A stretch of DNA of 28,063 nt. Origin: a virus. Taxonomy: Duplodnaviria > Heunggongvirae > Uroviricota > Caudoviricetes. The stretch lies in the IMG/VR virus record IMGVR_UViG_651053023_000002, positions 1 through 28,063 of that record, one strand, 5' to 3'. How positions within the stretch are numbered: position 1 is the stretch's first letter; each line of letters opens with the position of its first letter. A program made the position numbers and the translations under genes. The notes beneath the pieces are model-generated. The model was given only the letters and a program-made list of their open reading frames with translations, made no database searches and was not told where the DNA came from. Positions 1-26,406 of the stretch are shown one piece after another.

Positions 1-1164
1 TTACGCCTTCTTTATATCCTCCATAATTTCAGAGTGGGACATATTTGGGACATTATCACCAAAAATGTCGTCTATTTTCCTCGCATGCTCTGTCAAATGA
101 TTAGGCGCAAGGTGAGCATACCTACGAACCATTTCTATGGACTCCCATCCGCCCATTTCCTGAAGCACTGATAATGGGACGCCTGACTGAATCAGCCAGC
201 TTGCCCAGGTGTGTCTGAGGTCATGGAAACGGAAATCTTCAATTCCTGCACGACGACAAGCTGATAGCCATGATGTCTTGCTGTCGATGCGCATCTTCCT
301 GACCGCAGGCGTTGATGTTCCATCTGCTCGCTTAGCCGCCTTGGTATGTACAAACACCCATTTGTGATGCTTGCCTATTTGATCACGCAACACTTTACAG
401 GCGGTATCGTTCAGCGCCACACCAATGGCGCGGTTTGATTTGCTCTCTTCTGGATTCACCCAGGCAACTCGTCGCTGCATGTCGATTTGTTGCCATTCCA
501 GATTTATGATGTTCGACTTTCTCAGACCAGTTGCCAGCGCAAACTTGACGACAGATTTCAGTGGTTCGGGGCACTCATCAATAAGGCGTTTTGCTTCCTC
601 CTTTTCCAGCCATCTGACTCGCTTGTTTCTGACCGCTGGTATCTTGATGACAGGCGCTTTTTCCAGCCACTTCCAGTCGCGTTCTGCAGCACGGAGAATG
701 GCCTTTATCATGGCAAGATGCTTTGCCTTTGTCTGAGTTGATACTGGCTTTGGTTCATAAACAGGCAGTTCTTTACCTTTCCTGATGGCGGCCTGAACTT
801 TCTGTTTCCATATTTCTTTCGTCTTTCTGTTATGCATTCTGCTTACAGCAGAGTAAATCTTTGCCTCCGAGATATCTTTAAGCCTTATACCCTCAAAATG
901 TTCAAGCCAGAACTCAATCCGGCTTTTATCTGAATCGAGAGATTTTTTATCAGCTTTTTCCTCAAGCCATCTTAGGCAGGCCTCTTCAAAAGTGACATCA
1001 GGTAAATCCCCTAGCTTTTCTACTCGCCAGAGTTCTGCTTTTCGCTTGTCGTGCAACTCCTGAGCTTGCCGCTTGTCCTTTGTGCCAAGAGATTCCTTAA
1101 TTCGTTTCCCGCCCGGGAGCGAATACGAGGCATACCATATTTCATTTCTGCGGAAGAGTGACAT
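1..1164 (-). CDS. intD: Phage integrase, tyrosine recombinase (387 aa), DLP12 IntD-like
   Basis: Full ORF ending at window position 1. C-terminal catalytic region [11 protein letters not shown]...VRRYAHL has the R-H-R-Y tyrosine-recombinase signature. Followed upstream by an excisionase-like gene. Confidence 0.9.
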
Positions 1165-1391
1165 TTTCTTTCCTCTGTTATGCCATCACCCGCGCTCACC
1201 TGGACAGTATGCAGCGGAGACTGAAGCGCCGCAATGCAGGCTTGCCGTGTTGTGAGGTAAGGAGATTTTGGCTTGGTTGGATCTTTACGTGTTGCCTGTA
1301 GGCGGCCTGTTCGTATCCAGTTGGTGGCGGTTGGTCTGGATATCTTAAGAAACTGACAGGCCTCATCGAGTGTGAGGCTGTATGATTCCAT
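1020..1391 (-). CDS. Excisionase-like DNA-binding protein (Xis/AlpA-type helix-turn-helix); start uncertain (1391 or 1421)
   Basis: N-terminus [31 protein letters not shown] resembles MerR/Xis-type HTH. Sits immediately upstream of int and overlaps the int start, as xis does in lambda. The long C-terminal overlap with int may be read-through. Confidence 0.55.
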
Positions 1392-1641
1392 GGTTACCTC
1401 TGCTTTTTGAACGCATGTCACGTAACTTCTTAATGTGTTCTGCCGTTTCGATCTCTTCTGCTATCCGATCTGCATCAGCTTTATTCACAGGTTCAAAGTC
1501 ATGATTAAAGCGGAACATGCTGGCGATACATGTTCTGCCTTTTCGGATGTAGTGAACTTTGTTGTGGGTAGAACGCAGGATTTTGCAGGGAGTGCCGTGG
1601 TGGTCGACGTACCAGGTGTTAGGAAAAATGATTCTGAACAT
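1363..1641 (-). CDS. Hypothetical early-left protein (92 aa)
   Basis: ORF co-oriented with int/xis in the lambda ea/orf region between exo and xis. No recognisable motif. Confidence 0.35.
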   Translation of the reverse strand: MFRIIFPNTWYVDHHGTPCKILRSTHNKVHYIRKGRTCIASMFRFNHDFEPVNKADADRIAEEIETAEHIKKLRDMRSKSRGNHGIIQPHTR

Positions 1642-1804
1642 TTTTACACCTCAGTTGGACGATGTTGAAATTTGCTGCTTTGGCTAACGTATGAAATTCT
1701 TCGTCTGTTTCTACTGGTATTGGCACAAACCTGACTCCAATTTGAGCAAGGCTATGTGCCATCTCAATACTCGTTCTTAACTCAACAGGAGATGCTTTGT
1801 GCAT
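1619..1804 (-). CDS. Hypothetical early-left protein (61 aa)
   Basis: Small ORF co-oriented with the leftward operon. Overlaps an alternative frame (1777..1938), so either may be the real gene. Confidence 0.3.
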   Translation of the reverse strand: MHKASPVELRTSIEMAHSLAQIGVRFVPIPVETDEEFHTLAKAANFNIVQLRCKNVQNHFS

Positions 1805-1938
1805 ACCGCCTCCCGTTTATTATTTATCTTCTCAGCCAGCCGCTGTGCTTTCAGTGGATTTCTGATAACAGAAAGGCCGGGAAATACCCAGCCTCGCTTT
1901 GTAACGGAGTAGACGAAAGTGATCGCGCCTACCCGGAT
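1777..1938 (-). pseudogene. 3' part of a small orf60a-like gene split by IS copy 1 (5' end lies at 3249..3274, overlapping the exo stop)
   Basis: Removing the IS and one copy of the GAT duplication gives a continuous frame ATGGCGATGACGCATCCTCACGATAATATCCGGGTA... ([20 protein letters not shown]...), about 62 aa, starting at the exo stop codon, as orf60a does in lambda. Confidence 0.3.
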
Positions 1939-1980
1939 TGAACCGCCCCGGGTTTCCTGGAGAGTGTTTTATCTGTGAAC

Positions 1981-2871
1981 TCAGGCTGCCAGATCATTGT
2001 TTCCGATGGAAGCATAATAAGCTTTTTCTGCTTCTGCCGGAGGAGTATGGCCCAGCCTTCCCAGCAATCGTCGATTGTTATACCAGTCCACCCACGTTAG
2101 TGTGGCCAGTTCCACTTCTGCACGGTTTTTCCAGCTCTTACGGTGTATTACCTCCGCTTTGTAAAGACCATTGATGCTCTCAGCCATCGCGTTGTCATAC
2201 GAGTCGCCTGTACTCCCTGTTGATGCCAGTAATCCGGCTTCTTTTAGTCGCTCCGTATAGGCCAGTGACACATACTGAGAGCCTTTATCGCTGTAATGGA
2301 TGGTGCCAGACGGACGACGGGCCCACAACGCCTGCTCCAGCGCATCCAGCACGAATGTCGTTTCCATAGACGATGAGACCCGCCCCCCCACGATGTATCC
2401 GGCAAACACATCAATGATAAACGCCACATAGACGAAGCCCTGCCATGTGCTGACGTAAGTAAAATCAGCCACCCACAGCTGGTCAGGACGTTCTGCCACG
2501 AACTGACGGTTTACGCGGTCACCTGTGGCAACGGTTTTCCGGCTGACGGTAGTGCGGACCTTTTTACCCCGGAGAACACCGGCAAGTCCCATAACCGCCA
2601 TGAGGCGCGCCACTGTACATCTGGCCACCCTGATTCCTTCCCGTAACAACTGACGCCAGACTTTACGCACACCGTACACCTGATGATTTTCATCGTATAC
2701 GCGCTGTATCTCTCTCTTCAGCCAGTCATCGTGCTGCGCACGGGCACTGCGTTTATCCGGATGATGTCGCTGTTGCTGACAATGGTAATACGTTGACGGG
2801 GCAATATGCAGTTCGCTGCATACCGGTCCGACCCCGTACTGCTCACGCAGCTTATCCAGCAGTGGCATCAT
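1981..2871 (-). CDS. IS3-family transposase OrfB (DDE integrase domain), 296 aa
   Basis: [16 protein letters not shown]... with DDE-type catalytic core. Differs from the copy-2 OrfB at 6 residues, including G where copy 2 has W in GWRVSSS. Confidence 0.85.
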
Positions 2872-3194
2872 TTTTTCCAGAGGCGGTCGAACTCCGCCTT
2901 CGCAAAATAAGCGGAAGCCTGGCGAAGGATATCGTTACTGCGGCGCAGTTCACGATTTTCACGTTCCAGCTCTTTCAGACGCTGACGTTCAGCGCTGGTG
3001 AGCCCACCATCACCGCCCCCGGTATCCCGCTCATGCTGGCGAACCCAGACACGCAGAGTCTCCGGCGTACAGCCAATCTTTGGGGCAATGGAACAAATTG
3101 CCGCCCACTGTGAGTCATATTCATCCTGACTTTCCAGAACCATACGAATCGCCCGCTGACGGACTTCGGGGGAAAAACGAGTATTTTTAGTCAT
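2868..3194 (-). CDS. IS3-family transposase OrfA (HTH), 108 aa
   Basis: [22 protein letters not shown]... Identical to the copy-2 OrfA. Overlaps orfB by 4 nt. Confidence 0.85.
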
Positions 3195-3268
3195 CCTGTT
3201 TACCTCTTTCTCAGGGAGTTTAGTCTCCAGGATTTCCGGGGCGGTTCAGATATTATCGTGAGGATGCG

Positions 3269-3949
3269 TCATCGCCATTGCTCCCCAAATACAAAACCAA
3301 TTTCAGCCAGTGCCTCGTCCATTTTTTCGATGAACTCCGGCACCATCTCGTCAAAACTCGCCATGTACTTTTCATTCCGCTCAATCACGACATAATGCAG
3401 GCCTTCACGCTTCATGCGCGGGTCATAGTTGGCAAAGTACCAGGCATCTTTTCGCGTCACCCACATGCTGTACTGCACCTGGGCCATGTAAGCCGATTTT
3501 ATTGCCTCGAAACCACCGAGCCGGAATTTCATGAAATCCCGGGAGGTAAACGGGCATTTCAGTTCAAGGCCGTTGCCGTCACTGCATAAACCATCGGGAG
3601 AGCAGGCGGTGCGCATACTTTCGTCGCGATAGATGATCGGGGATTCAGTAATATTCACGCCGGAAGTGAATTCAAACAGGGTTCTGGCGTCGTTCTCGTA
3701 CTGTTTTCCCCAGGCCAGCGCCTTAGCATTAACTTCCGGAGCCACACCGGTGCAAACCTCAGCCAGCAGGGTGTGGAAGTAGGACATTTTCATGTCAGGC
3801 CACTTCTTTCCTGAGCGGGGCTTTGCTATCACGTTGTGAACTTCTGAAGCGGTGATGACGCCGAGCCGTAATTTGTGCCATGCATCATCCCCCTGTTCGA
3901 CAGCTCTCACGTCGATCCCGGTACGCTGCAGGATAATGTCCGGTATCAT
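3269..3949 (-). CDS. exo: Lambda-type exonuclease (Red alpha / Exo), 226 aa, apparently intact
   Basis: Near-identical to lambda Exo as recalled ([40 protein letters not shown]...GEQWR). ATGA overlap with the upstream bet-derived ORF. Confidence 0.9.
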
Positions 3950-4326
3950 GCTGCCACCTTCTGCTCAGTGGCTTTCTGTTTCAGGAATCCAAGAGCTTTC
4001 ACTGCTTCGGCCTGTGTCAGTTCTGACGATGCGCGAATGTCGCGGCGAAATATCTGGGAACAGAGCGGCAATAAGTCGTCATCCCATGTTTTATCCAGGG
4101 CGATCAGCAGAGTGTTAATCTCCTGCATGGTTTCATCGTTAATGGCTTTTTTGCTGGCCCCGTGGCGTTGCAAATGATCGATGCATAGCGATTCAAACAG
4201 GTGCTGGGGCAGGCCTTTTTCCATGTCGTCTGCCAGTTCTGCCTCTTTCTCTTCACGGGCGATCTGCTGGTAGTAACGCGCCCAGCTCTGAGCCTCAAGA
4301 CGATCCTGAATGTAATAAGCGTTCAT
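3946..4326 (-). pseudogene. In-frame gam'::'bet deletion fusion: GamS N-terminal ~60 aa joined to Bet C-terminal ~66 aa
   Basis: Residues 1-60 ([60 protein letters not shown]) match lambda Gam. Residues 61-126 ([58 protein letters not shown]...) match the lambda Bet C-terminus. Junction near 4146. Confidence 0.8.
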
Positions 4327-4401
4327 GGCTGAACTCCTGAAAATGGCTGTGAAAATATCGCCCGCGAAATGCCAGGCTGATTAGGAAAACAGGAAAGGGG
4401 A

Positions 4402-4608
4402 TTAGCGATTCAGGCCGTTACCGCGTCCGTCGAGAAAAACTTCCACGAGCAAATCACGGGTATAAGTGCGCTCGATGCCGCGATGCAGATAAAGCCGTCC
4501 GCGTAAATTAGCTGATGCAGTCCAGGTACCATCTTTGTGTTTGACCAGCATTCCTGGCATGACCGCACCTCGATTAACGGTCTGCGTTCCGTAATGTTGA
4601 TGAACCAT
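4402..4608 (-). CDS. KilR-like small protein (68 aa), Rac-prophage KilR family; the six-frame ORF 4402..4812 is probably an over-extension
   Basis: [66 protein letters not shown] aligns with Rac KilR as recalled ([34 protein letters not shown]...VFLGRDGLP). The internal ATG has an AGGAG Shine-Dalgarno 7 nt upstream; the longer ORF starts at TTG without one. Confidence 0.6.
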
Positions 4609-4829
4609 AAAAACTCCTGCCCGTAAGCTGGGCTGCTGAACATATAGAGACTTCTGCGCGTATTCAGGCGGTGGATGGCCGCCGGTTGTCATAACTAAGC
4701 CGCCTCGTTGAAGCGACTGAGGTATAAAGTGTTGTGTTGATTTCAGCTGGTCACACCGACGTTCACGCGTCCGTTTCACCCCTCGCACTCCCCGAAGCCT
4801 GCTGAAATTCAAACTGCGGATCTAAGCGG

Positions 4830-4881
4830 TCATCGCAACGGTGAAACAGGTGGTTACCGTATCGTTGTGTCGTTGCGATGA
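4830..4881. promoter_or_regulatory. 11-bp perfect inverted repeat (TCATCGCAACG / CGTTGCGATGA) with 30-nt spacer between pL/OL and kilR-like
   Basis: Seen directly. No U-run follows on either strand, so it is not a classic intrinsic terminator. Candidate protein-binding palindrome or leader RNA structure. Confidence 0.35.
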
Positions 4882-4889
4882 ATTTATTT

Positions 4890-4965
4890 AAAACTATAGT
4901 TGTTTTATCGTCAACAACAAAAGTTGTTTTATCGGTTGTTTTAAATATAACTGGTTGTATTTAGG
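4890..4965 (-). promoter_or_regulatory. Putative OL operator cluster and pL promoter
   Basis: Multiple copies of the (T)GGTTGTT / AACAAC half-site (4898-4904, 4912-4918, 4922-4928, 4935-4941, 4952-4958). The same motif forms the palindrome in OR. Lies just upstream of the leftward operon. Confidence 0.55.
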
Positions 4966-5047
4966 ATGGATTTATTTTGTGACTTGCATCGCATAGCGAT
5001 AACTGAAGTGAGGTGTGGTGGTTTTTTGGACGGTATGAGTTATGAGG

Positions 5048-5080
5048 GGGAGGAAAAGAAAACCCGGCGCGGTTGCCGGG
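5048..5080 (-). terminator. Rho-independent terminator downstream of the lipoprotein gene
   Basis: Hairpin CCCGGCGCGGTTGCCGGG (5063-5080), followed on the minus-strand transcript by UUUUCUUUUCC. Confidence 0.7.
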
Positions 5081-5088
5081 TATGATTA

Positions 5089-5469
5089 TCAGTCAGCCCA
5101 ACCTGATTTCGAGTTTATTTGGGTTTCTGACATTGTGTATTTCTTAATCGTGTCATCGTTAAAAAGAATAGTAAGTTCTTTTTTCGTACCGTTCGTTCCG
5201 TTATGGAATAATCCATAGAATGGAATAAAAGTGGTGCCATTAACTTTTACTTTTGCAAAGGCGTACTTCCAGATCTCCTTTCCACTGTCAGTATATGAAA
5301 CAGCATCAGGAGAACCAAAGTAAGATTTAACCTCATTCTTGGTTGTTTTACCTTCCTGAAGTTTAGACTGGACACTAATTTCAGTTTCATTTTTGAGTTG
5401 CTGGTTGCCTGAAGAAGCACACCCAGCCAATACAGATGCCATCATGGCAGCGATTAGGATTTTTCTCAT
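5089..5469 (-). CDS. Lipoprotein (126 aa) in the cI-proximal rexAB position; candidate superinfection-exclusion or defence moron
   Basis: Signal peptide with lipobox MRKILIAAMMASVLAG-C. Mature part is Lys/Thr-rich with weak BamE/SmpA_OmlA-like pattern. Same strand as and downstream of cI, with its own terminator. Confidence 0.6.
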   Translation of the reverse strand: MRKILIAAMMASVLAGCASSGNQQLKNETEISVQSKLQEGKTTKNEVKSYFGSPDAVSYTDSGKEIWKYAFAKVKVNGTTFIPFYGLFHNGTNGTKKELTILFNDDTIKKYTMSETQINSKSGWAD

Positions 5470-5698
5470 TTTATGTTTCCATTCATTATAATCAGAAACA
5501 TCTTAACATAATGATTCGAAATAAAAACCGCTACGAGATAGGGAGACATTTTGCTGACAGTAGCAACAAATCTCAGCTAACAACGAGAATATTTACTGAA
5601 ATATGCAAACAGATTTGGCGTTCTTATAGAGAATTTAGTGCAATATCTAATCCGAGTGGTATAAACCTTAACCTTCGCTCCCTTAAGTCGTAGATAAA

Positions 5699-6388
5699 TT
5701 AACCATGCTTCCTGTACGTCTGCGGCATGCTTCCAATGACCTTACCGAATATGAACACCCGGTTCATCTCGTCTTTCTCGATCGGGTCCCACGGCGAGTA
5801 GCTCTTGTTATCAGAGATAACCAGCAGCTTATCCTTCATCATTTGAAGACGTTTTACATGGGCAGTGTCGTCGTACAGAAACGCATAGATGCCATCACCG
5901 TCGAAAGATTTAACAGTGATATCAACGAACAGCAGGTCACCTGGTTCGATCGTCCCTGACATGCTGTCACCTCGCACGTTAATGATGCGGATATTTTCCG
6001 CCTTCCTGCCATCGAACATGTGACGAGCATCGTCAAACGAGTACTCAACCGAGCGTAGAACTTCTACAAACTCACGGTTGATTACACCTGGCCCGGCACT
6101 GACTTCTATATCAAGAACGTCAATTTTGAAGTATTTGGAATGGCTGACAGTTGATTGTATTGGTTGCACTGTACTGTCTGACATATTTCCAACGCCAGAA
6201 GATAACCATTCTGCGCGTACACCCAAAGCGTTCGCGATCTCCACGATTTTAGTTGTTTGGTTAGCTTTCCCTGTTTCGATTTTCTGAATAGCAGCCTGGC
6301 TAACCCCGACCAAATCCCCAAGCGCCTTTTGTGTAAGGCCTCGCGCTAATCTGGCTTCTTTAAGTCTTTCTGAGAGTGTTGTTTTCAT
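5699..6388 (-). CDS. cI: CI-type prophage repressor (HTH_XRE plus S24 LexA-like autopeptidase), 229 aa
   Basis: N-terminal HTH (LTQKALGDLVGVSQAAIQKIETGK). Ala-Gly cleavage site (VSAGPG). Catalytic Ser in GDSM and Lys in HVKRL. Divergent from the cro-like gene. No SD before the ATG, consistent with a leaderless pRM transcript. Confidence 0.85.
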   Translation of the reverse strand: MKTTLSERLKEARLARGLTQKALGDLVGVSQAAIQKIETGKANQTTKIVEIANALGVRAEWLSSGVGNMSDSTVQPIQSTVSHSKYFKIDVLDIEVSAGPGVINREFVEVLRSVEYSFDDARHMFDGRKAENIRIINVRGDSMSGTIEPGDLLFVDITVKSFDGDGIYAFLYDDTAHVKRLQMMKDKLLVISDNKSYSPWDPIEKDEMNRVFIFGKVIGSMPQTYRKHG

Positions 6389-6492
6389 AGATCAAATGTA
6401 CAACCAAGGTTTTATTTCATCAAACGAAAATGGTTGTTGACTAAAAACAACCATAGTTTTAATCTTGATTCGGATTAACCACGGAGGTTGTT
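6389..6492. promoter_or_regulatory. OR operator region with divergent pRM/pR promoters
   Basis: 23-bp palindrome TGGTTGTTgactaaaAACAACCA (6431-6453), plus half-sites ACAACCA (6400-6406) and GGTTGTT (6486-6492). Lies between divergent cI and cro. Confidence 0.65.
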
Positions 6493-6723
6493 ATGAACCC
6501 AGCAATCAAAACAGCGATCAATATCGTTGGTTCACAAAAGAAACTAGGCGATGCCTGCGAAGTTTCACAGCAGGCCGTCTATAAGTGGCTTCACAACAAA
6601 GCAAAGGTATCCCCTGAACATGTCGGCAGCATTGTTACGGCTACTGGTGGAGTTGTGAAGGCATACCAGATTCGCCCGGATCTTCCGAAGTTGTTTCCAC
6701 ACACCGAAAAGAACGCAGCTTAA
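6493..6723 (+). CDS. Cro-like HTH regulator (YdaS/Cro family), 76 aa
   Basis: Small HTH protein (LGDACEVSQQAVYKWL) divergent from cI, with GGAGG SD. Positional Cro analogue. Confidence 0.7.
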   Translation: MNPAIKTAINIVGSQKKLGDACEVSQQAVYKWLHNKAKVSPEHVGSIVTATGGVVKAYQIRPDLPKLFPHTEKNAA

Positions 6724-6792
6724 ATTTCCATTTCACGCTCTTTAACAATAAGCAATCAACTTAACAGTCAATTCAAACTAAAGGAGTCAATT

Positions 6793-7332
6793 ATGCAACC
6801 ACTTACATACCAACAGACTAGCGGATTTATTCCGACTGCGGTGATAAATCGTTCTCAAACAAAACAAGCTCCAGGCCACGAAAAAATCCGTGATGCCGTC
6901 CGCGCCTGGTCGGCTGTAGATAATCAGGATGTCGTTGCCGCACTCATTGTGAATGAGTATCGGGAGCAGGGCGACGGCACCATCGATTTCCCTGATGATG
7001 TCAGCCGTGCACGCCAGAAGCTGTTCCGCTTCCTCGATAACAAATTCGATTCTGAAAAATACCGAAATAACGTGCGTGAACTGACCCCGGCAATTCTGGC
7101 GGTACTACCGCTGGAATATCGCGGTTACCTGGTTGAGCAGGATAGCTTCATGACTCGGTTGGCTGAAATGGAAAAGGAACTCAGTGAGGCAAAACAGGCT
7201 GTCATTCTCAACGCACCACGCCACCAGAAACTGAAGGAAATGAGTGAAGGTATTGTGTCGATGTTTCGTGTGGACCCGGATCTGGCTGGTCCATTAATGG
7301 CGATGGTGACCACCATGCTGGGGGCAATATGA
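6793..7332 (+). CDS. YdaT-like protein in the cII position, 179 aa
   Basis: Segment LTPAILAVLPLEYRGYL resembles Rac YdaT (LIPAILAILPRELR) as recalled. AAGGAG SD. Sits between cro and O. Confidence 0.5.
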   Translation: MQPLTYQQTSGFIPTAVINRSQTKQAPGHEKIRDAVRAWSAVDNQDVVAALIVNEYREQGDGTIDFPDDVSRARQKLFRFLDNKFDSEKYRNNVRELTPAILAVLPLEYRGYLVEQDSFMTRLAEMEKELSEAKQAVILNAPRHQKLKEMSEGIVSMFRVDPDLAGPLMAMVTTMLGAI

Positions 7333-7418
7333 CAGGTTCAGAAATGGCGAAAGTCGGTCTGCGGGAACAGAACCGACTTTCAGGTGCAAATCGTAACACA
7401 CTCATTGCGGGAGGAATT

Positions 7419-8348
7419 ATGGCAAACACTGCTGAGATATTCAATTTTCCAGTGCCGGATGCGGCACAAAAGGAGCCGCGCGTGGCAGATCTCGATGATG
7501 GTTATACGCGCATTGCAAATGAGTTGCTGGAAGCTGTGATGCTGGCCGGATTAACACAGCACCAGCTTCTGGTCTTCCTGGCTGTCATGCGCAAAACATA
7601 TGGCTTTAATAAAAGACTGGATTGGGTGAGCAACGAGCAACTTTCCGAATTGACCGGGATATTGCCGCACAAGTGTTCTGCTGCAAAAAGCGTTCTGGTA
7701 AAGCGTGGGATTCTTATTCAGAGCGGGCGAAATATCGGCATTAATAATGTGGTCAGTGAATGGTCAACATTACCCGAATCAGGTAAGAAAAATAAAGTTT
7801 ACCTGAAAGAGGTAAATTTACCTGAATCAGGTAAGAAAAGTTTACCCAAATCAGGTAAAGGCGTTTACCCGAATCAGGTAAACACAAAAGACAAACTAAC
7901 AAAAGACAATATAAAACCTTTTTCGTCCGAGAATTCTGGCGAATCCTCTGACCAGCCAGAAAACGACCTTCCTGTGGTGAAACCGGATGCTGCAATTCAG
8001 AGTGGCAGCAAGTGGGGGACAGCAGAAGACCTGACCGCCGCAGAGTGGATGTTTGACATGGTGAAGACCATCGCGCCATCAGCCAGAAAACCGAATTTTG
8101 CAGGGTGGGCTAACGATATCCGCCTGATGCGTGAACGTGACGGACGTAACCACCGCGACATGTGCGTGCTGTTCCGCTGGGCATGCCAGGACAACTTCTG
8201 GTCCGGTAACGTGCTGAGTCCGGCCAAACTCCGCGACAAGTGGACCCAGCTCGAAATCAACCGAAACAAGCAACAGGCTGGCGTGACAGCCGGCAAACCA
8301 AAACTCGACCTGACGAACACTGACTGGATTTACGGGGTGGATTTATGA
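7419..8348 (+). CDS. O: Replication initiator O (lambda O family), about 309 aa; six-frame ORF starts earlier at 7329
   Basis: N-terminal domain with VADLDDGY...LLVFLAVMRKTYGFNK matches lambda O. Iteron-encoded linker. GGGAGG SD before ATG at 7419. Overlaps P by ATGA. Confidence 0.85.
   Translation: MANTAEIFNFPVPDAAQKEPRVADLDDGYTRIANELLEAVMLAGLTQHQLLVFLAVMRKTYGFNKRLDWVSNEQLSELTGILPHKCSAAKSVLVKRGILIQSGRNIGINNVVSEWSTLPESGKKNKVYLKEVNLPESGKKSLPKSGKGVYPNQVNTKDKLTKDNIKPFSSENSGESSDQPENDLPVVKPDAAIQSGSKWGTAEDLTAAEWMFDMVKTIAPSARKPNFAGWANDIRLMRERDGRNHRDMCVLFRWACQDNFWSGNVLSPAKLRDKWTQLEINRNKQQAGVTAGKPKLDLTNTDWIYGVDL
7770..7882. repeat. Origin of replication: five ~17-bp iterons (TTACCYRAATCAGGTAA, one variant TTACCTGAAAGAGGTAA) inside the O gene, followed by an AT-rich tract to about 7925
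   Basis: Five tandem near-palindromic repeats at about 19-23 bp spacing, then cacaaaagacaaactaacaaaagacaatataaaacc. Same architecture as lambda ori. Confidence 0.8.
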
Positions 8349-9046
8349 AAAACATCGCCGCACAGATGGTTAACTTTGACCGTGAGCAGATGCGCCGGAT
8401 CGCCAACAATATGCCGGAACAGTACGACGAAAAGCCGCAGGTACAGCAGGTAGCGCAGATCATCAACGGTGTGTTCAGCCAGTTACTGGCAACTTTCCCG
8501 GCGAGCCTGGCTAACCGTGACCAGAATGAACTGAACGAAATCCGCCGCCAGTGGGTTCTGGCTTTCCGGGAAAACGGGATCACCACAATGGAACAGGTTA
8601 ACGCTGGAATGCGCGTAGCCCGTCGGCAGAATCGACCATTCCTGCCATCACCCGGGCAGTTTGTCGCCTGGTGCCGGGAAGAAGCATCTGTTAACGCCGG
8701 GCTGCCAAACGTCAGCGAGCTGGTTGATATGGTTTACGAGTATTGCCGGAAGCGTGGCCTGTATCCGGATGCAGAGTCTTATCCGTGGAAATCGAACGCG
8801 CATTACTGGTTGGTTACCAACTTGTACCAGAACATGCGGGCCAATGCGCTGGCTGACGCGGAATTACGGCGCAAGGCTGCCGATGAACTGACCTGTATGA
8901 CAGCGCGAATTAACCGTGGTGAGACGATACCTGAACCAGTAAAACAACTTCCTGTTATGGGCGGTAGACCTCTAAATCGTGCACAGGCTCTGGCGAAGAT
9001 CGCAGAAATTAAAGCTAAGTTCGGACTGAAAGGAGCAAGTGTATGA
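8345..9046 (+). CDS. P: Replication protein P (DnaB loader), lambda P, 233 aa
   Basis: Near-identical to lambda P as recalled (MKNIAAQMVNFDREQMRRIANNMPEQYDEKPQVQQ...KFGLKGASV). Confidence 0.9.
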   Translation: MKNIAAQMVNFDREQMRRIANNMPEQYDEKPQVQQVAQIINGVFSQLLATFPASLANRDQNELNEIRRQWVLAFRENGITTMEQVNAGMRVARRQNRPFLPSPGQFVAWCREEASVNAGLPNVSELVDMVYEYCRKRGLYPDAESYPWKSNAHYWLVTNLYQNMRANALADAELRRKAADELTCMTARINRGETIPEPVKQLPVMGGRPLNRAQALAKIAEIKAKFGLKGASV

Positions 9047-9345
9047 CGGGCAAAGAGGCAATTATTCATTACCTGGGGACGCATAAGAGCTTCTGTGCAC
9101 AGGACGTTGCCGCGGTAACAGGCGCAACCGTAACCAGCATAAATCAGGCTGCGGCTAAAATGGCGCGGGCAGGAATCCTGGTCGTTGATGGTAAGGTCTG
9201 GCGAACGGTGTATTACCGGTTCGCTACCAGAGAAGAATGGGAAGGAAAGGTGAGCACGAATCTGATTTTTAAGGAGTGTCGCCAGAGTGCCGCGATGAAA
9301 CGGGTATTGAGGGTATATAAAAGAACATCAATGGGAACACAATGA
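9043..9345 (+). CDS. ren: Ren (Rex exclusion resistance) protein, lambda ren-like, 100 aa
   Basis: MTGKEAIIHYLGTHKSFCAQDVAAVTGATVTSINQAAAKMARAGILV... matches lambda Ren. Confidence 0.85.
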   Translation: MTGKEAIIHYLGTHKSFCAQDVAAVTGATVTSINQAAAKMARAGILVVDGKVWRTVYYRFATREEWEGKVSTNLIFKECRQSAAMKRVLRVYKRTSMGTQ

Positions 9346-9412
9346 TGAAACAGGTGAGTTGAGTTCAAACTGTAGTACAATTCTCTCCAGTTTGAACAGG
9401 AAAGAATATGCT

Positions 9413-9745
9413 ATGAACCCTTATATTTATCTTGGTGGTGCAATACTTGCAGAGGTCATTGGTACAACCTTAATGAAGTTTTCAGAAGGTTTTACACGGT
9501 TATGGCCATCTGTTGGTACAATTATTTGTTATTGTGCATCATTCTGGTTATTAGCTCAGACGCTGGCTTATATTCCTACAGGGATTGCTTATGCTATCTG
9601 GTCAGGAGTCGGTATTGTCCTGATTAGCTTACTGTCATGGGGATTTTTCGGCCAACGGCTGGACCTGCCAGCCATTATAGGCATGATGTTGATTTGTGCC
9701 GGTGTGTTGATTATTAATTTATTGTCACGAAGCACACCACATTAA
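9413..9745 (+). CDS. emrE: Small multidrug resistance efflux transporter EmrE (110 aa)
   Basis: MNPYIYLGGAILAEVIGTTLMKFSEGFTRLWPSVGTIICYCASFWLLAQTLAYIPTGIAYAIWSGVGIVLISLLSWGFFGQRLDLPAIIGMMLICAGVLIINLLSRSTPH matches E. coli EmrE, including Glu14. The six-frame ORF has an 18-codon upstream extension. Confidence 0.95.
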   Translation: MNPYIYLGGAILAEVIGTTLMKFSEGFTRLWPSVGTIICYCASFWLLAQTLAYIPTGIAYAIWSGVGIVLISLLSWGFFGQRLDLPAIIGMMLICAGVLIINLLSRSTPH

Positions 9746-9775
9746 AATAATTTGTTTCTAAACGACTAAAATATG

Positions 9776-9808
9776 GAGGCTCTTATATTTATATGAGCCT
9801 CGTTTTAT
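9776..9808 (+). terminator. Rho-independent terminator after emrE
   Basis: Hairpin GAGGCTC-ttatatttatat-GAGCCTC followed by GTTTTATGCTTTTT. Confidence 0.6.
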
Positions 9809-9999
9809 GCTTTTTGTTAATGTCTTTATTTTTTATGTATTCTTTTGTGCTTTCAAGATTATGGCGTAAGAAAATTGCAATACGATTATTGTTGTATATT
9901 CAAGATAATGTGACCTTAATTGTCTTTTTAAATAAAAAATAAACAAAAATTATATCCCACCACTAAGGTTTATAAAAGCATACGTTAGCAGGTGTCACC

Positions 10000-10569
10000 A
10001 TGAAAAAAGCCATAGCATATATGCGATTTTCATCACCAGGTCAGATGTCTGGCGACTCATTAAACCGACAGAGAAGACTTATTGCTGAATGGTTAAAGGT
10101 AAATAGTGATTATTATCTTGATACCATAACATATGAAGATTTAGGATTAAGTGCATTCAAAGGAAAGCATGCACAATCAGGAGCTTTTTCGGAATTTTTA
10201 GATGCTATAGAGCATGGTTATATATTGCCAGGAACTACATTGTTAGTTGAAAGTCTGGACAGACTTTCAAGAGAAAAAGTCGGTGAAGCGATTGAACGTC
10301 TGAAATTGATTTTGAATCACGGTATTGATGTTATAACTCTTTGCGACAATACAGTCTATAATATTGGCTCTTTGAATGAGCCATATTCATTAATAAAAGC
10401 CATACTTATAGCACAAAGGGCAAATGAAGAAAGCGAGATAAAGTCAAGTCGGGTTAAATTATCATGGAAGAAAAAACGGCAGGATGCACTGGAATCAGGT
10501 ACGATTATGACGGCGTCTTGTCCGAGATGGCTCTCCTTAGATGACAAAAGAACGGCTTTTGTTCCAGAC
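10000..10569 (+). pseudogene. ybcK: ybcK (serine recombinase, resolvase-type N-terminal domain), 5' part, interrupted by IS2
   Basis: N-terminus MKKAIAYMRFSSPGQ... fits a resolvase catalytic domain with Ser nucleophile context. The reading frame runs into the IS2 terminus at 10570. Confidence 0.8.
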
Positions 10570-10580
10570 TGGATTTGCCC

Positions 10581-11486
10581 CTATATTTCCAGACATCTGT
10601 TATCACTTAACCCATTACAGGCCCGCTGCCGCAGATATTCCCGTGGCGAGCGATAACCCAGCGCACTATGCGGATGCCATTCGTTATAATGCTCGAACGC
10701 CTCTGCAAGGTTCTTTGCTGCCGTTAACCCGTCTGGTTTGGGCATGATACTGATGTAGTCACGCTTTATCGTTTTCACGAAGCTCTCTGCTATTCCGTTA
10801 CTCTCCGGACTCCGCACCGCCGTGTTCTTCGGTTCAAGTCCCAACATCCGGGCGAACTGGCGTGTTTCATTAGCCCGGTAGCATGAACCATTATCCGTCA
10901 GCCACTCCACTGGAGACGACGGAAGATCGTTGCCGAAGCGGCGTTCCACCGCTCCCAGCATGACGTCCTGTACTGTTTCACTGTTGAAGCCGCCGGTAGT
11001 GACCGCCCAGTGCAGTGCCTCACGATCACAGCAGTCCAGCGCGAACGTGACACGCAGTCTCTCTCCGTTATCACAGCAGAACTCGAACCCGTCAGAGCAC
11101 CATCGCTGATTGCTTTCTTTCACGGCCACTCTGCCTGTATGTGCCCGTTTCGATGGCGGTACAGCAGGTTTTCGCTCAAGCAACAGCGCATTCTGGCGCA
11201 TGATCCGGTAAACACGTTTGGCATTGATCGCAGGCATACCATCAAGTTCTGCCTGTCTGCGAAGCAGCGCCCATACCCGACGATAACCATACGTTGGCAG
11301 CTCTCCGATAACATGGTGTATACGGAGAAGCACATCCGTATCATCAGTGTGACGACTGCGGCGGCCATCCATCCAGTCATCGGTTCGTCTGAGAATGACG
11401 TGCAACTGCGCACGCGACACCCGGAGACAACGGCTGACTAAGCTTACTCCCCATCCCCGGGCAATAAGGGCGCGTGCGCTATCCAC
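10581..11486 (-). CDS. insD: IS2 transposase InsD (OrfB), 301 aa
   Basis: [34 protein letters not shown]... with DDE integrase core. Matches IS2 InsD. Confidence 0.9.
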
Positions 11487-11809
11487 TTTTTTGCCCGTCC
11501 ATATTCAACGGCTTCTTTGAGGAGTTCATTTTCCATCGTTTTCTTGCCGAGCAGGCGCTGGAGTTCTTTAATCTGCTTCATGGCGGCAGCAAGTTCAGAG
11601 GCAGGAACAACCTGTTCTCCGGCGGCGACAGCAGTAAGACTTCCTTCCTGGTATTGCTTACGCCAGAGAAATAACTGGCTGGCTGCTACACCATGTTGCC
11701 GGGCAACGAGGGAGACCGTCATCCCCGGTTCAAAGCTCTGCTGAACAATTGCGATCTTTTCCTGTGTGGTACGCCGTCTGCGTTTCTCCGGCCCTAAGAC
11801 ATCAATCAT
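11444..11809 (-). CDS. insC: IS2 transposase InsC (OrfA), 121 aa
   Basis: [53 protein letters not shown]... Overlaps insD in the frameshift window. Confidence 0.85.
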
Positions 11810-11905
11810 CTGTTCTCCAATGACTAGTCTAAAAACTAGTATTAAGACTATCACTTATTTAAGTGATACTGGTTGTCTGGAGATTCAGGGGGCCAGTCTA
11901 CAGAC

Positions 11906-17001: not shown

Positions 17002-17055
17002 TGAACCGCCCCGGAAATCCTGGAGACTAAACTCCCTGAGAAAGAGGTAAACAGG

Positions 17056-17382
17056 ATGACTAAAAATACTCGTTTTTCCCCCGAAGTCCGTCAGCGGGCG
17101 ATTCGTATGGTTCTGGAAAGTCAGGATGAATATGACTCACAGTGGGCGGCAATTTGTTCCATTGCCCCAAAGATTGGCTGTACGCCGGAGACTCTGCGTG
17201 TCTGGGTTCGCCAGCATGAGCGGGATACCGGGGGCGGTGATGGTGGGCTCACCAGCGCTGAACGTCAGCGTCTGAAAGAGCTGGAACGTGAAAATCGTGA
17301 ACTGCGCCGCAGTAACGATATCCTTCGCCAGGCTTCCGCTTATTTTGCGAAGGCGGAGTTCGACCGCCTCTGGAAAAAATGA
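17056..17382 (+). CDS. IS3-family transposase OrfA, 108 aa
   Basis: Identical to the copy-1 OrfA. Confidence 0.85.
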
Positions 17383-18269
17383 TGCCACTGCTGGATAAGC
17401 TGCGTGAGCAGTACGGGGTCGGACCGGTATGCAGCGAACTGCATATTGCCCCGTCAACGTATTACCATTGTCAGCAACAGCGACATCATCCGGATAAACG
17501 CAGTGCCCGTGCGCAGCACGACGACTGGCTGAAGAGAGAGATACAGCGCGTATACGATGAAAATCATCAGGTGTACGGTGTGCGTAAAGTCTGGCGTCAG
17601 TTGTTACGGGAAGGAATCAGGGTGGCCAGATGTACAGTGGCACGTCTCATGGCGGTTATGGGACTTGCCGGTGTTCTCCGGGGTAAAAAGGTCCGTACGA
17701 CCATCAGCCGGAAAGCCGTTGCCGCAGGCGACCGCGTAAACCGTCAGTTCGTGGCAGAACGACCTGACCAGCTGTGGGTGGCTGATTTTACTTACGTCAG
17801 CACATGGCAGGGCTTCGTCTATGTGGCGTTTATCATTGATGTGTTTGCCGGATACATCGTGGGGTGGCGGGTCTCATCGTCTATGGAAACGACATTCGTG
17901 CTGGATGCGCTGGAGCAGGCGTTGTGGGCCCGTCGTCCGTCTGGCACCATCCATCACAGCGATAAAGGCTCTCAGTATGTGTCACTGGCCTATACGGAGC
18001 GACTAAAAGAAGCCGGATTACTGGCATCAACAGGGAGTACAGGCGACTCGTATGACAACGCGATGGCTGAGAGCATCAATGGTCTTTACAAAGCGGAGGT
18101 AATACACCGTAAGAGCTGGAAAAACCGTGCAGAAGTGGAACTGGCCACACTAACGTGGGTGGACTGGTATAACAATCGACGATTGCTGGGAAGGCTGGGC
18201 CATACTCCTCCGGCAGAAGCAGAAAAAGCTTATTATGCTTCCATCGGAAACGATGATCTGGCAGCCTGA
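17379..18269 (+). CDS. IS3-family transposase OrfB, 296 aa
   Basis: DDE transposase. Has the W in GWRVSSS where copy 1 has G. Confidence 0.85.
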
Positions 18270-18311
18270 GTTCACAGATAAAACACTCTCCAGGAAACCC
18301 GGGGCGGTTCA

Positions 18312-23381: not shown

Positions 23382-26406
<3,025 letters not shown>

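Follow-up and report, generated by a model that had tools for sequence, protein, structure and literature searches.

A single 707-bp deletion joins gam to bet in frame in a DLP12-type prophage, most likely leaving a pseudogene remnant

The window, the whole 28,063-nt stretch of DNA analysed here, carries on its minus strand an open reading frame of 126 aa (3946..4326) that consists of GamS residues 1-62 followed by Bet residues 198-261. The gam-derived part (4143..4326, minus) comprises GamS codons 1-61 and the first bases of codon 62, and the bet-derived part (3946..4139, minus) covers the crystallised Red-beta C-terminal three-helix bundle. Between them lies a deletion junction (4140..4142) at which TAA (plus strand), a 3-bp microhomology, is present at both parental breakpoints. 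The fusion is followed by exo (3269..3949, minus; 226 aa), whose start overlaps its stop: in the ATGA at 3946-3949 (minus), the fusion TGA shares bases with the exo ATG. Exo is intact and matches a full-length lambda exonuclease (Pfam YqaJ, E = 2.6e-29); it is 97.8% identical to lambda Exo, with 5 substitutions, and retains the catalytic residues D109, E129 and K131 as well as F94, a Bet-contacting residue according to published work.

The closest intact parent of the fusion is the gam-bet-exo region of E. coli N3, to which window 3800-4480 is 100% identical on both arms. Compared base by base, the left arm matches N3 up to 4142 and the right arm from 4140, and exactly 707 bp of N3 are absent from the window. 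Fusion residues 1-62 are those of the 98-aa N3 Gam, and the last 64 residues and the stop are the C-terminus of N3 Bet; what is lost is Gam 63-98 (36 of 98 residues) and Bet 1-197 (197 of 261). The comparison with lambda, for which gam, bet and exo were translated from NC_001416, gives the same picture. In BLAST, at ~97.4% identity, lambda 31328-32221 pairs with window 3249-4142, which holds exo and the 3' end of bet, and lambda 32926-33190 pairs with window 4140-4405, which holds the leader and the 5' portion of gam. The lambda arms are collinear with a 3-bp overlap, and lambda 32222-32928 is missing from the window. Overall, the lambda Red module (31348-33232) is collinear with the window at ~97.4% nucleotide identity and has the same bet/exo ATGA overlap, GamS start and Shine-Dalgarno (SD) sequence. 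The fusion is in frame because 707 equals 2 mod 3, which cancels the +2 offset between the gam and bet frames; chance alone would leave the frame open one time in three, so this is no evidence for selection.

A sequence-only reading of the window had proposed an in-frame gam'::'bet fusion made by one deletion, and the two collinear arms seen against both lambda and N3 bear this out. The abrupt switch from Gam to Bet was correctly placed within a few residues (62 + 64 aa, not 60 + ~66 aa), but the deletion is shorter than the ~0.8 kb suggested. The reading was also right that about three-quarters of Bet had gone, but not that Gam had lost its C-terminal half. Its further claims that exo stays intact with the bet-exo ATGA coupling kept, and that the C-terminal region of Bet is retained (residues 198-261, here aligned to 6M9K chain D), hold. 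The pairwise alignment to lambda gam-bet-exo that it called for mapped the breakpoints, and the N3 comparison identified the TAA microhomology. It had also named a naturally short homologue as the finding that would overturn it. Such a homologue, or an assembly artefact, has next to no probability as an explanation of the open reading frame: each half matches, at 100% identity, one of two neighbouring full-length genes in other strains, the arms lie 707 bp apart in the intact N3 allele, and the identical junction is shared by six genomes that were finished independently and by ~100 contigs of several origins.

Upstream of the fusion, the GamS start and its ribosome-binding region (4327..4345, minus; AGGAG 7 nt before the ATG) remain, as had been claimed. 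The leader reads CACAGCCATTTTCAGG in the window and CACAGCTATTTCAGG in lambda, which amounts to one substitution and one extra T. The extra T, just upstream of the SD, brings TAA stops into the frame of lambda's GamL extension and closes it. The earlier reading had correctly noticed that this frame was closed, but had counted a 1-nt difference; in N3 and many other genomes the identical leader (3800-4480, 100%) stands before an intact gam, where Gam is annotated at 98 aa and is preceded by a KilR-type gene in place of lambda kil. Because it is common to intact gam alleles, the GamL difference is a feature of this allele family, not decay. Homology with lambda stops at window 4405, and a gene for a KilR-type cell-division inhibitor (4402..4608, minus; 68 aa) replaces lambda kil upstream of gam. 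Lambda thus has kil-cIII upstream of gam and a GamL frame, whereas the window has the KilR-type gene and no GamL frame.

Further upstream, a block of about 30 nt, GTTGTTGAC(G/T)A(T/A)AAAACAAC(T/C)ATAGTTTTAA, is present twice on opposite strands: at about 4885-4935 (minus), where it reads GTTGTTGACGATAAAACAACTATAGTTTTAA, and in near-identical form in the repressor/cro intergenic region at 6430-6465, where it reads GTTGTTGACTAAAAACAACCATAGTTTTAA. The two blocks bracket a lipoprotein gene and an intact gene for an S24-peptidase (CI/LexA-like) repressor (5699..6388, minus), and are probably OL/pL and OR/pR of this immunity type in the usual lambdoid arrangement. The putative pL/OL (4885..4935, minus) would then be separated from the downstream fusion by ~560 nt that include kilR, and no N-like gene is evident between pL and kilR. 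With this layout, the lysogen probably does not express the fusion, which may be translated when pL is derepressed by SOS. An Rfam scan near the fusion for put-like, nut or any other RNA elements returned nothing besides two IS-borne ALIL pseudoknots. A strong terminator-like hairpin at 5062-5081 closes off the BamE-like lipoprotein gene, which is flanked by the repressor gene and pL; as a block of pL transcription into the fusion this hairpin (5081..5062, minus) was rejected, since the pL block (~4885-4935) sits downstream of it. The lipoprotein-like open reading frame itself (5089-5469, minus; 126 aa) has a weak BamE-domain match just under the Pfam cut-off. In other lambdoid relatives its slot holds SIR2 or other cargo, which makes it resemble a moron or defence-gene slot.

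The prophage that hosts the fusion can be recognised from its relatives. Over window 1-1938 and 3249-10569, identity to the argU-flanked locus of the pig E. coli ETEC1716 and P13-6 is 99.99-100%; that locus is bounded by tRNA-Arg/fimZ and by the emrE-ybcK...rusA-quuD-porin-essD-rrrD-bor-nohD' set. The intD integrase gene (1..1164, minus) adjoins argU in related complete genomes; as the window begins inside intD, we infer its own argU adjacency from these relatives. Judged by the argU/fimZ site, intD, the emrE...nohD set and the missing morphogenesis genes, the locus is the cryptic prophage DLP12 at argU beside fimZ, as annotated in K-12. The prophage is defective: a truncated nohD is joined to a fragment of J, and every head gene and most of the tail genes have been lost; this joint appears to be a large deletion that took out the morphogenesis genes. 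The annotation of near-identical relatives puts the joint between nohD (terminase small subunit) and the host-specificity protein J at window about 23382-26406, as an estimate.

K-12 DLP12 has the same argU/fimZ site, the same intD and the same emrE-ybcK...rusA-quuD-nmpC-essD-rrrD-borD-nohD backbone. Its early-left recombination region is likewise decayed by deletion (exoD, xisD, peaD and renD are pseudogenes), but through a larger and different event, in which everything between the exo fragment and the P fragment was lost. The lineage of the window retains exo, what is left of gam and bet, kilR, the repressor, cro, O and P, and the window is a less decayed state of DLP12 than that of K-12.

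Three IS insertions in the window are missing from most relatives. An IS3-family element of 1310 bp (1939..3248, minus), with an ALIL frameshift pseudoknot and a 3-bp GAT target duplication, sits inside a DUF1317 gene just downstream of exo; a draft genome (L011, GCA_012651785.1) carries the first IS at the same position. The second 1310-bp copy (17002-18311), in inverted orientation and 99% identical to the first, also has an ALIL pseudoknot and a 3-bp target duplication (ATC), and lies between quuD and the porin gene. The third insertion is an IS2 (10570-11900) with a 5-bp CAGAC target duplication, which interrupts the ybcK serine-recombinase gene. P13-6 has IS2 at another place, in ybcM.

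We next consider what the two halves of the fusion keep and lose. Gam is an inhibitor of host nuclease, and its dimer obstructs the site at which RecBCD binds DNA. On the Gam side, published work shows that the protein works as a dimer whose long N-terminal helix inserts into the 3'-ssDNA channel of RecB. Residues 1-62, identical to intact Gam, would supply this RecB-channel helix, and a low-confidence AlphaFold2 model predicts a helix at fusion residues 3-36; the model was made from the single sequence (mean pLDDT 44.6, pTM 0.26) and is usable for helix positions alone. The Gam Pfam profile (PF06064) matches positions 1-64 of its 98 only, short of a full-length domain. The region C-terminal to residue 62 reportedly forms part of the dimer core in the 2007 Gam structure of Court and colleagues. 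On the Bet side, no Pfam match to a RecT domain is obtained in the 126-aa fusion. Bet 1-177 carries annealing and oligomerisation and Bet 178-261 carries Exo binding, according to published work, and with Bet 1-197 deleted the N-terminal DNA-binding and oligomerisation domain of a Red-beta/RecT annealase is absent. Red-beta's C-terminal domain (CTD) has been described as a three-helix bundle that binds the lambda Exo trimer; in vitro, the isolated domain did not bind the SSB C-terminal peptide. In the PDB, fusion residues 1-63 match GamS (2UUZ, 5MBV) and the remaining matches are to the Bet CTD only: residues 62-125 align over their entire length to the Red-beta CTD crystals 6M9K chain D and 8TFU (E about 1e-35), with one substitution relative to the crystallised domain (A to T, fusion residue 120). 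Bet 198-261 is nearly the entire crystallised CTD, so by alignment the Exo-binding bundle is present in the fusion, joined here to a truncated Gam and not to the annealase N-terminal domain. The chimera would therefore be a protein that lacks the annealase domain as well as Gam's C-terminal third, and that retains the Gam helix and the Exo-docking domain.

To place the allele among E. coli, the junction was searched as a 70-nt probe against 5,426 complete genomes. It was found in six, all porcine, while the region itself is present in 3,343; among the records read, the origins of carriers include Belgium and France. The junction is also present in two IMG/VR prophage fragments and in none of 50,697 phage records. 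The exact 126-aa protein is AEJ55159.1, a 'recT domain protein' of E. coli UMNF18, and is found on 99 contigs and in 171 index blocks. Variants of 126 aa differ at 1-3 residues, mirroring the standing allele variation of gam. The reading frame is open in every copy seen, three diverged haplotypes included; because the copies are nearly identical, they give no power to test for purifying selection. A literature search on DLP12 gam-bet-exo found no description of the fusion allele. In the three complete genomes whose annotation was read, PGAP labels both halves as 'incomplete; partial' pseudogenes. The fusion is thus already marked there as two broken genes, and is a case of ordinary prophage decay.

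The same junction lies in prophages other than DLP12, which bears on whether the deletion arose once. L012 and L016 carry it in a defective prophage that has a lambda-type integrase adjoining a pectinesterase gene (the neighbourhood of lambda att), a SIR2 gene and neither immunity nor replication region; this element is 98.0% identical over 1.28 kb. In L013 and L014 it lies in an intD prophage whose immunity region differs. The junction open reading frame is at 8001-8381 in both L012 and L013 and at about 5600-6000 in L016, and is also seen in L014 and L015. That it is present not only at argU (DLP12) but also at a lambda-att-type site (L012, L016) and within an intD prophage of other immunity (L013) could be taken to mean that the deletion occurred independently at one hotspot in different prophages. 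We consider this very unlikely, as an exact repeat is improbable with 3 bp of microhomology. Copies in other backgrounds are 96-98% identical to the window, with differences that cluster away from the junction; in L012, 270 nt around it (window 3946-4214) are identical and the differences fall within exo and towards the 5' end of gam, which is the pattern of recombinational mosaicism. Moreover, gam-bet-exo is 97-100% conserved among lambdoid elements, which offers ample homology for exchange. These comparisons suggest that the deletion allele spread between backgrounds by homologous recombination, and because the microhomology is only 3 bp, one origin with recombinational spread is far likelier than recurrence.

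The locus has eroded further in some relatives. In ETEC4090, L008 and L017, a second deletion, with a GGTA microhomology, runs from inside int to 26 bp inside exo. It corresponds to window 1005-3919 (relative to L004, L008 and L017) and removes the 5' end of intD, small open reading frames and, apart from its first 30 nt, exo; its breakpoint lies just downstream of the fusion stop, and the fusion is left intact. We count this second deletion, which takes away exo, as continuing decay of the locus, in support of the pseudogene reading. Other relatives have deletions in O/P. A 379-bp deletion (window 7164-7542) in L004 (22686-23858) and L008 fuses a YdaT-like gene to O in a 390-aa open reading frame (region equivalent to window 6793-8348), and L009 lacks window 8151-9114, across O-P. 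These O/P-region deletions add to the in-frame or near-frame fusions of this prophage.

Altogether, we conclude that the fusion is a deletion pseudogene remnant left by illegitimate recombination in a DLP12-type prophage, with a probability of about 0.88. Three observations match what such a pseudogene should show: flanks that are collinear and 100% identical to an intact allele, the 3-bp TAA microhomology, and the loss of essential domains. Illegitimate recombination or replication slippage between the 3-bp microhomologies would have produced the single 707-bp deletion in the early-left (pL) operon. Both activities would have been abolished, with the Gam dimerisation region and the whole Bet DNA-binding/annealing domain gone; the frame stayed open by a 1-in-3 chance, and the SD and ATG are kept. 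Lying ~560 nt below a putative repressor-controlled pL, the fusion would probably be silent in the lysogen, with translation possible on SOS derepression. The allele would then have passed vertically in a pig-associated E. coli lineage, and a few other lambdoid backgrounds would have received it, most simply by homologous recombination through the conserved gam-bet-exo DNA.

There is no evidence that the chimera has a function. Several points nevertheless go against the pseudogene reading: no haplotype has a closed reading frame, a complete folded domain for Exo binding and the Gam helix that enters RecB are both there, and the fusion survives the deletion that removes exo. The rival reading is a new functional protein whose CTD would dock on the Exo trimer of the prophage itself or of a superinfecting lambdoid phage, or on SSB, but would provide no annealing. 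It would be either a dominant-negative modulator of Red recombination or a tether that links the RecB-channel helix of Gam to Exo. The CTD, nearly all of it present, binds Exo by itself, the SD, the ATG and translational coupling to exo are all kept, and the allele, open in every haplotype, is found in at least three prophage backgrounds. Even so, we regard a functional chimera of either kind as improbable. The open frame is expected one time in three and the copies are too alike for selection to be tested; the in vitro result on the isolated CTD argues against SSB as a partner, and Exo, the other partner, is deleted in some carriers. Gam acts as a dimer and the region past residue 62, said to be part of its dimer core, is lost; the allele is rare and missing from sequenced phages, and the AlphaFold2 model, at pLDDT 44.6, is uninformative. 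A more specific version, in which the chimera is expressed on derepression and its CTD acts as a decoy that caps the Exo of the resident or a superinfecting phage, or competes for SSB, is a long shot. If true, a decaying Red module would have been turned into a recombination modulator or a weak anti-phage factor, which could explain why the allele was retained and possibly why it moved across prophage backgrounds.

As a deletion pseudogene, the fusion is of limited importance, and it would inform Red biology only if the chimera binds Exo in vivo. It calls for caution with annotation, as gene callers outside PGAP name the open reading frame 'recombinase RecT' or 'recT domain protein' despite the missing annealase domain. 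In practice, the junction offers a lineage marker by which to recognise a pig-associated ETEC/STEC clade. For the biology of the prophage, it provides a cleanly mapped case of the erosion of cryptic prophages through small microhomology-mediated deletions, and it captures DLP12 in an intermediate state that K-12 has already passed.
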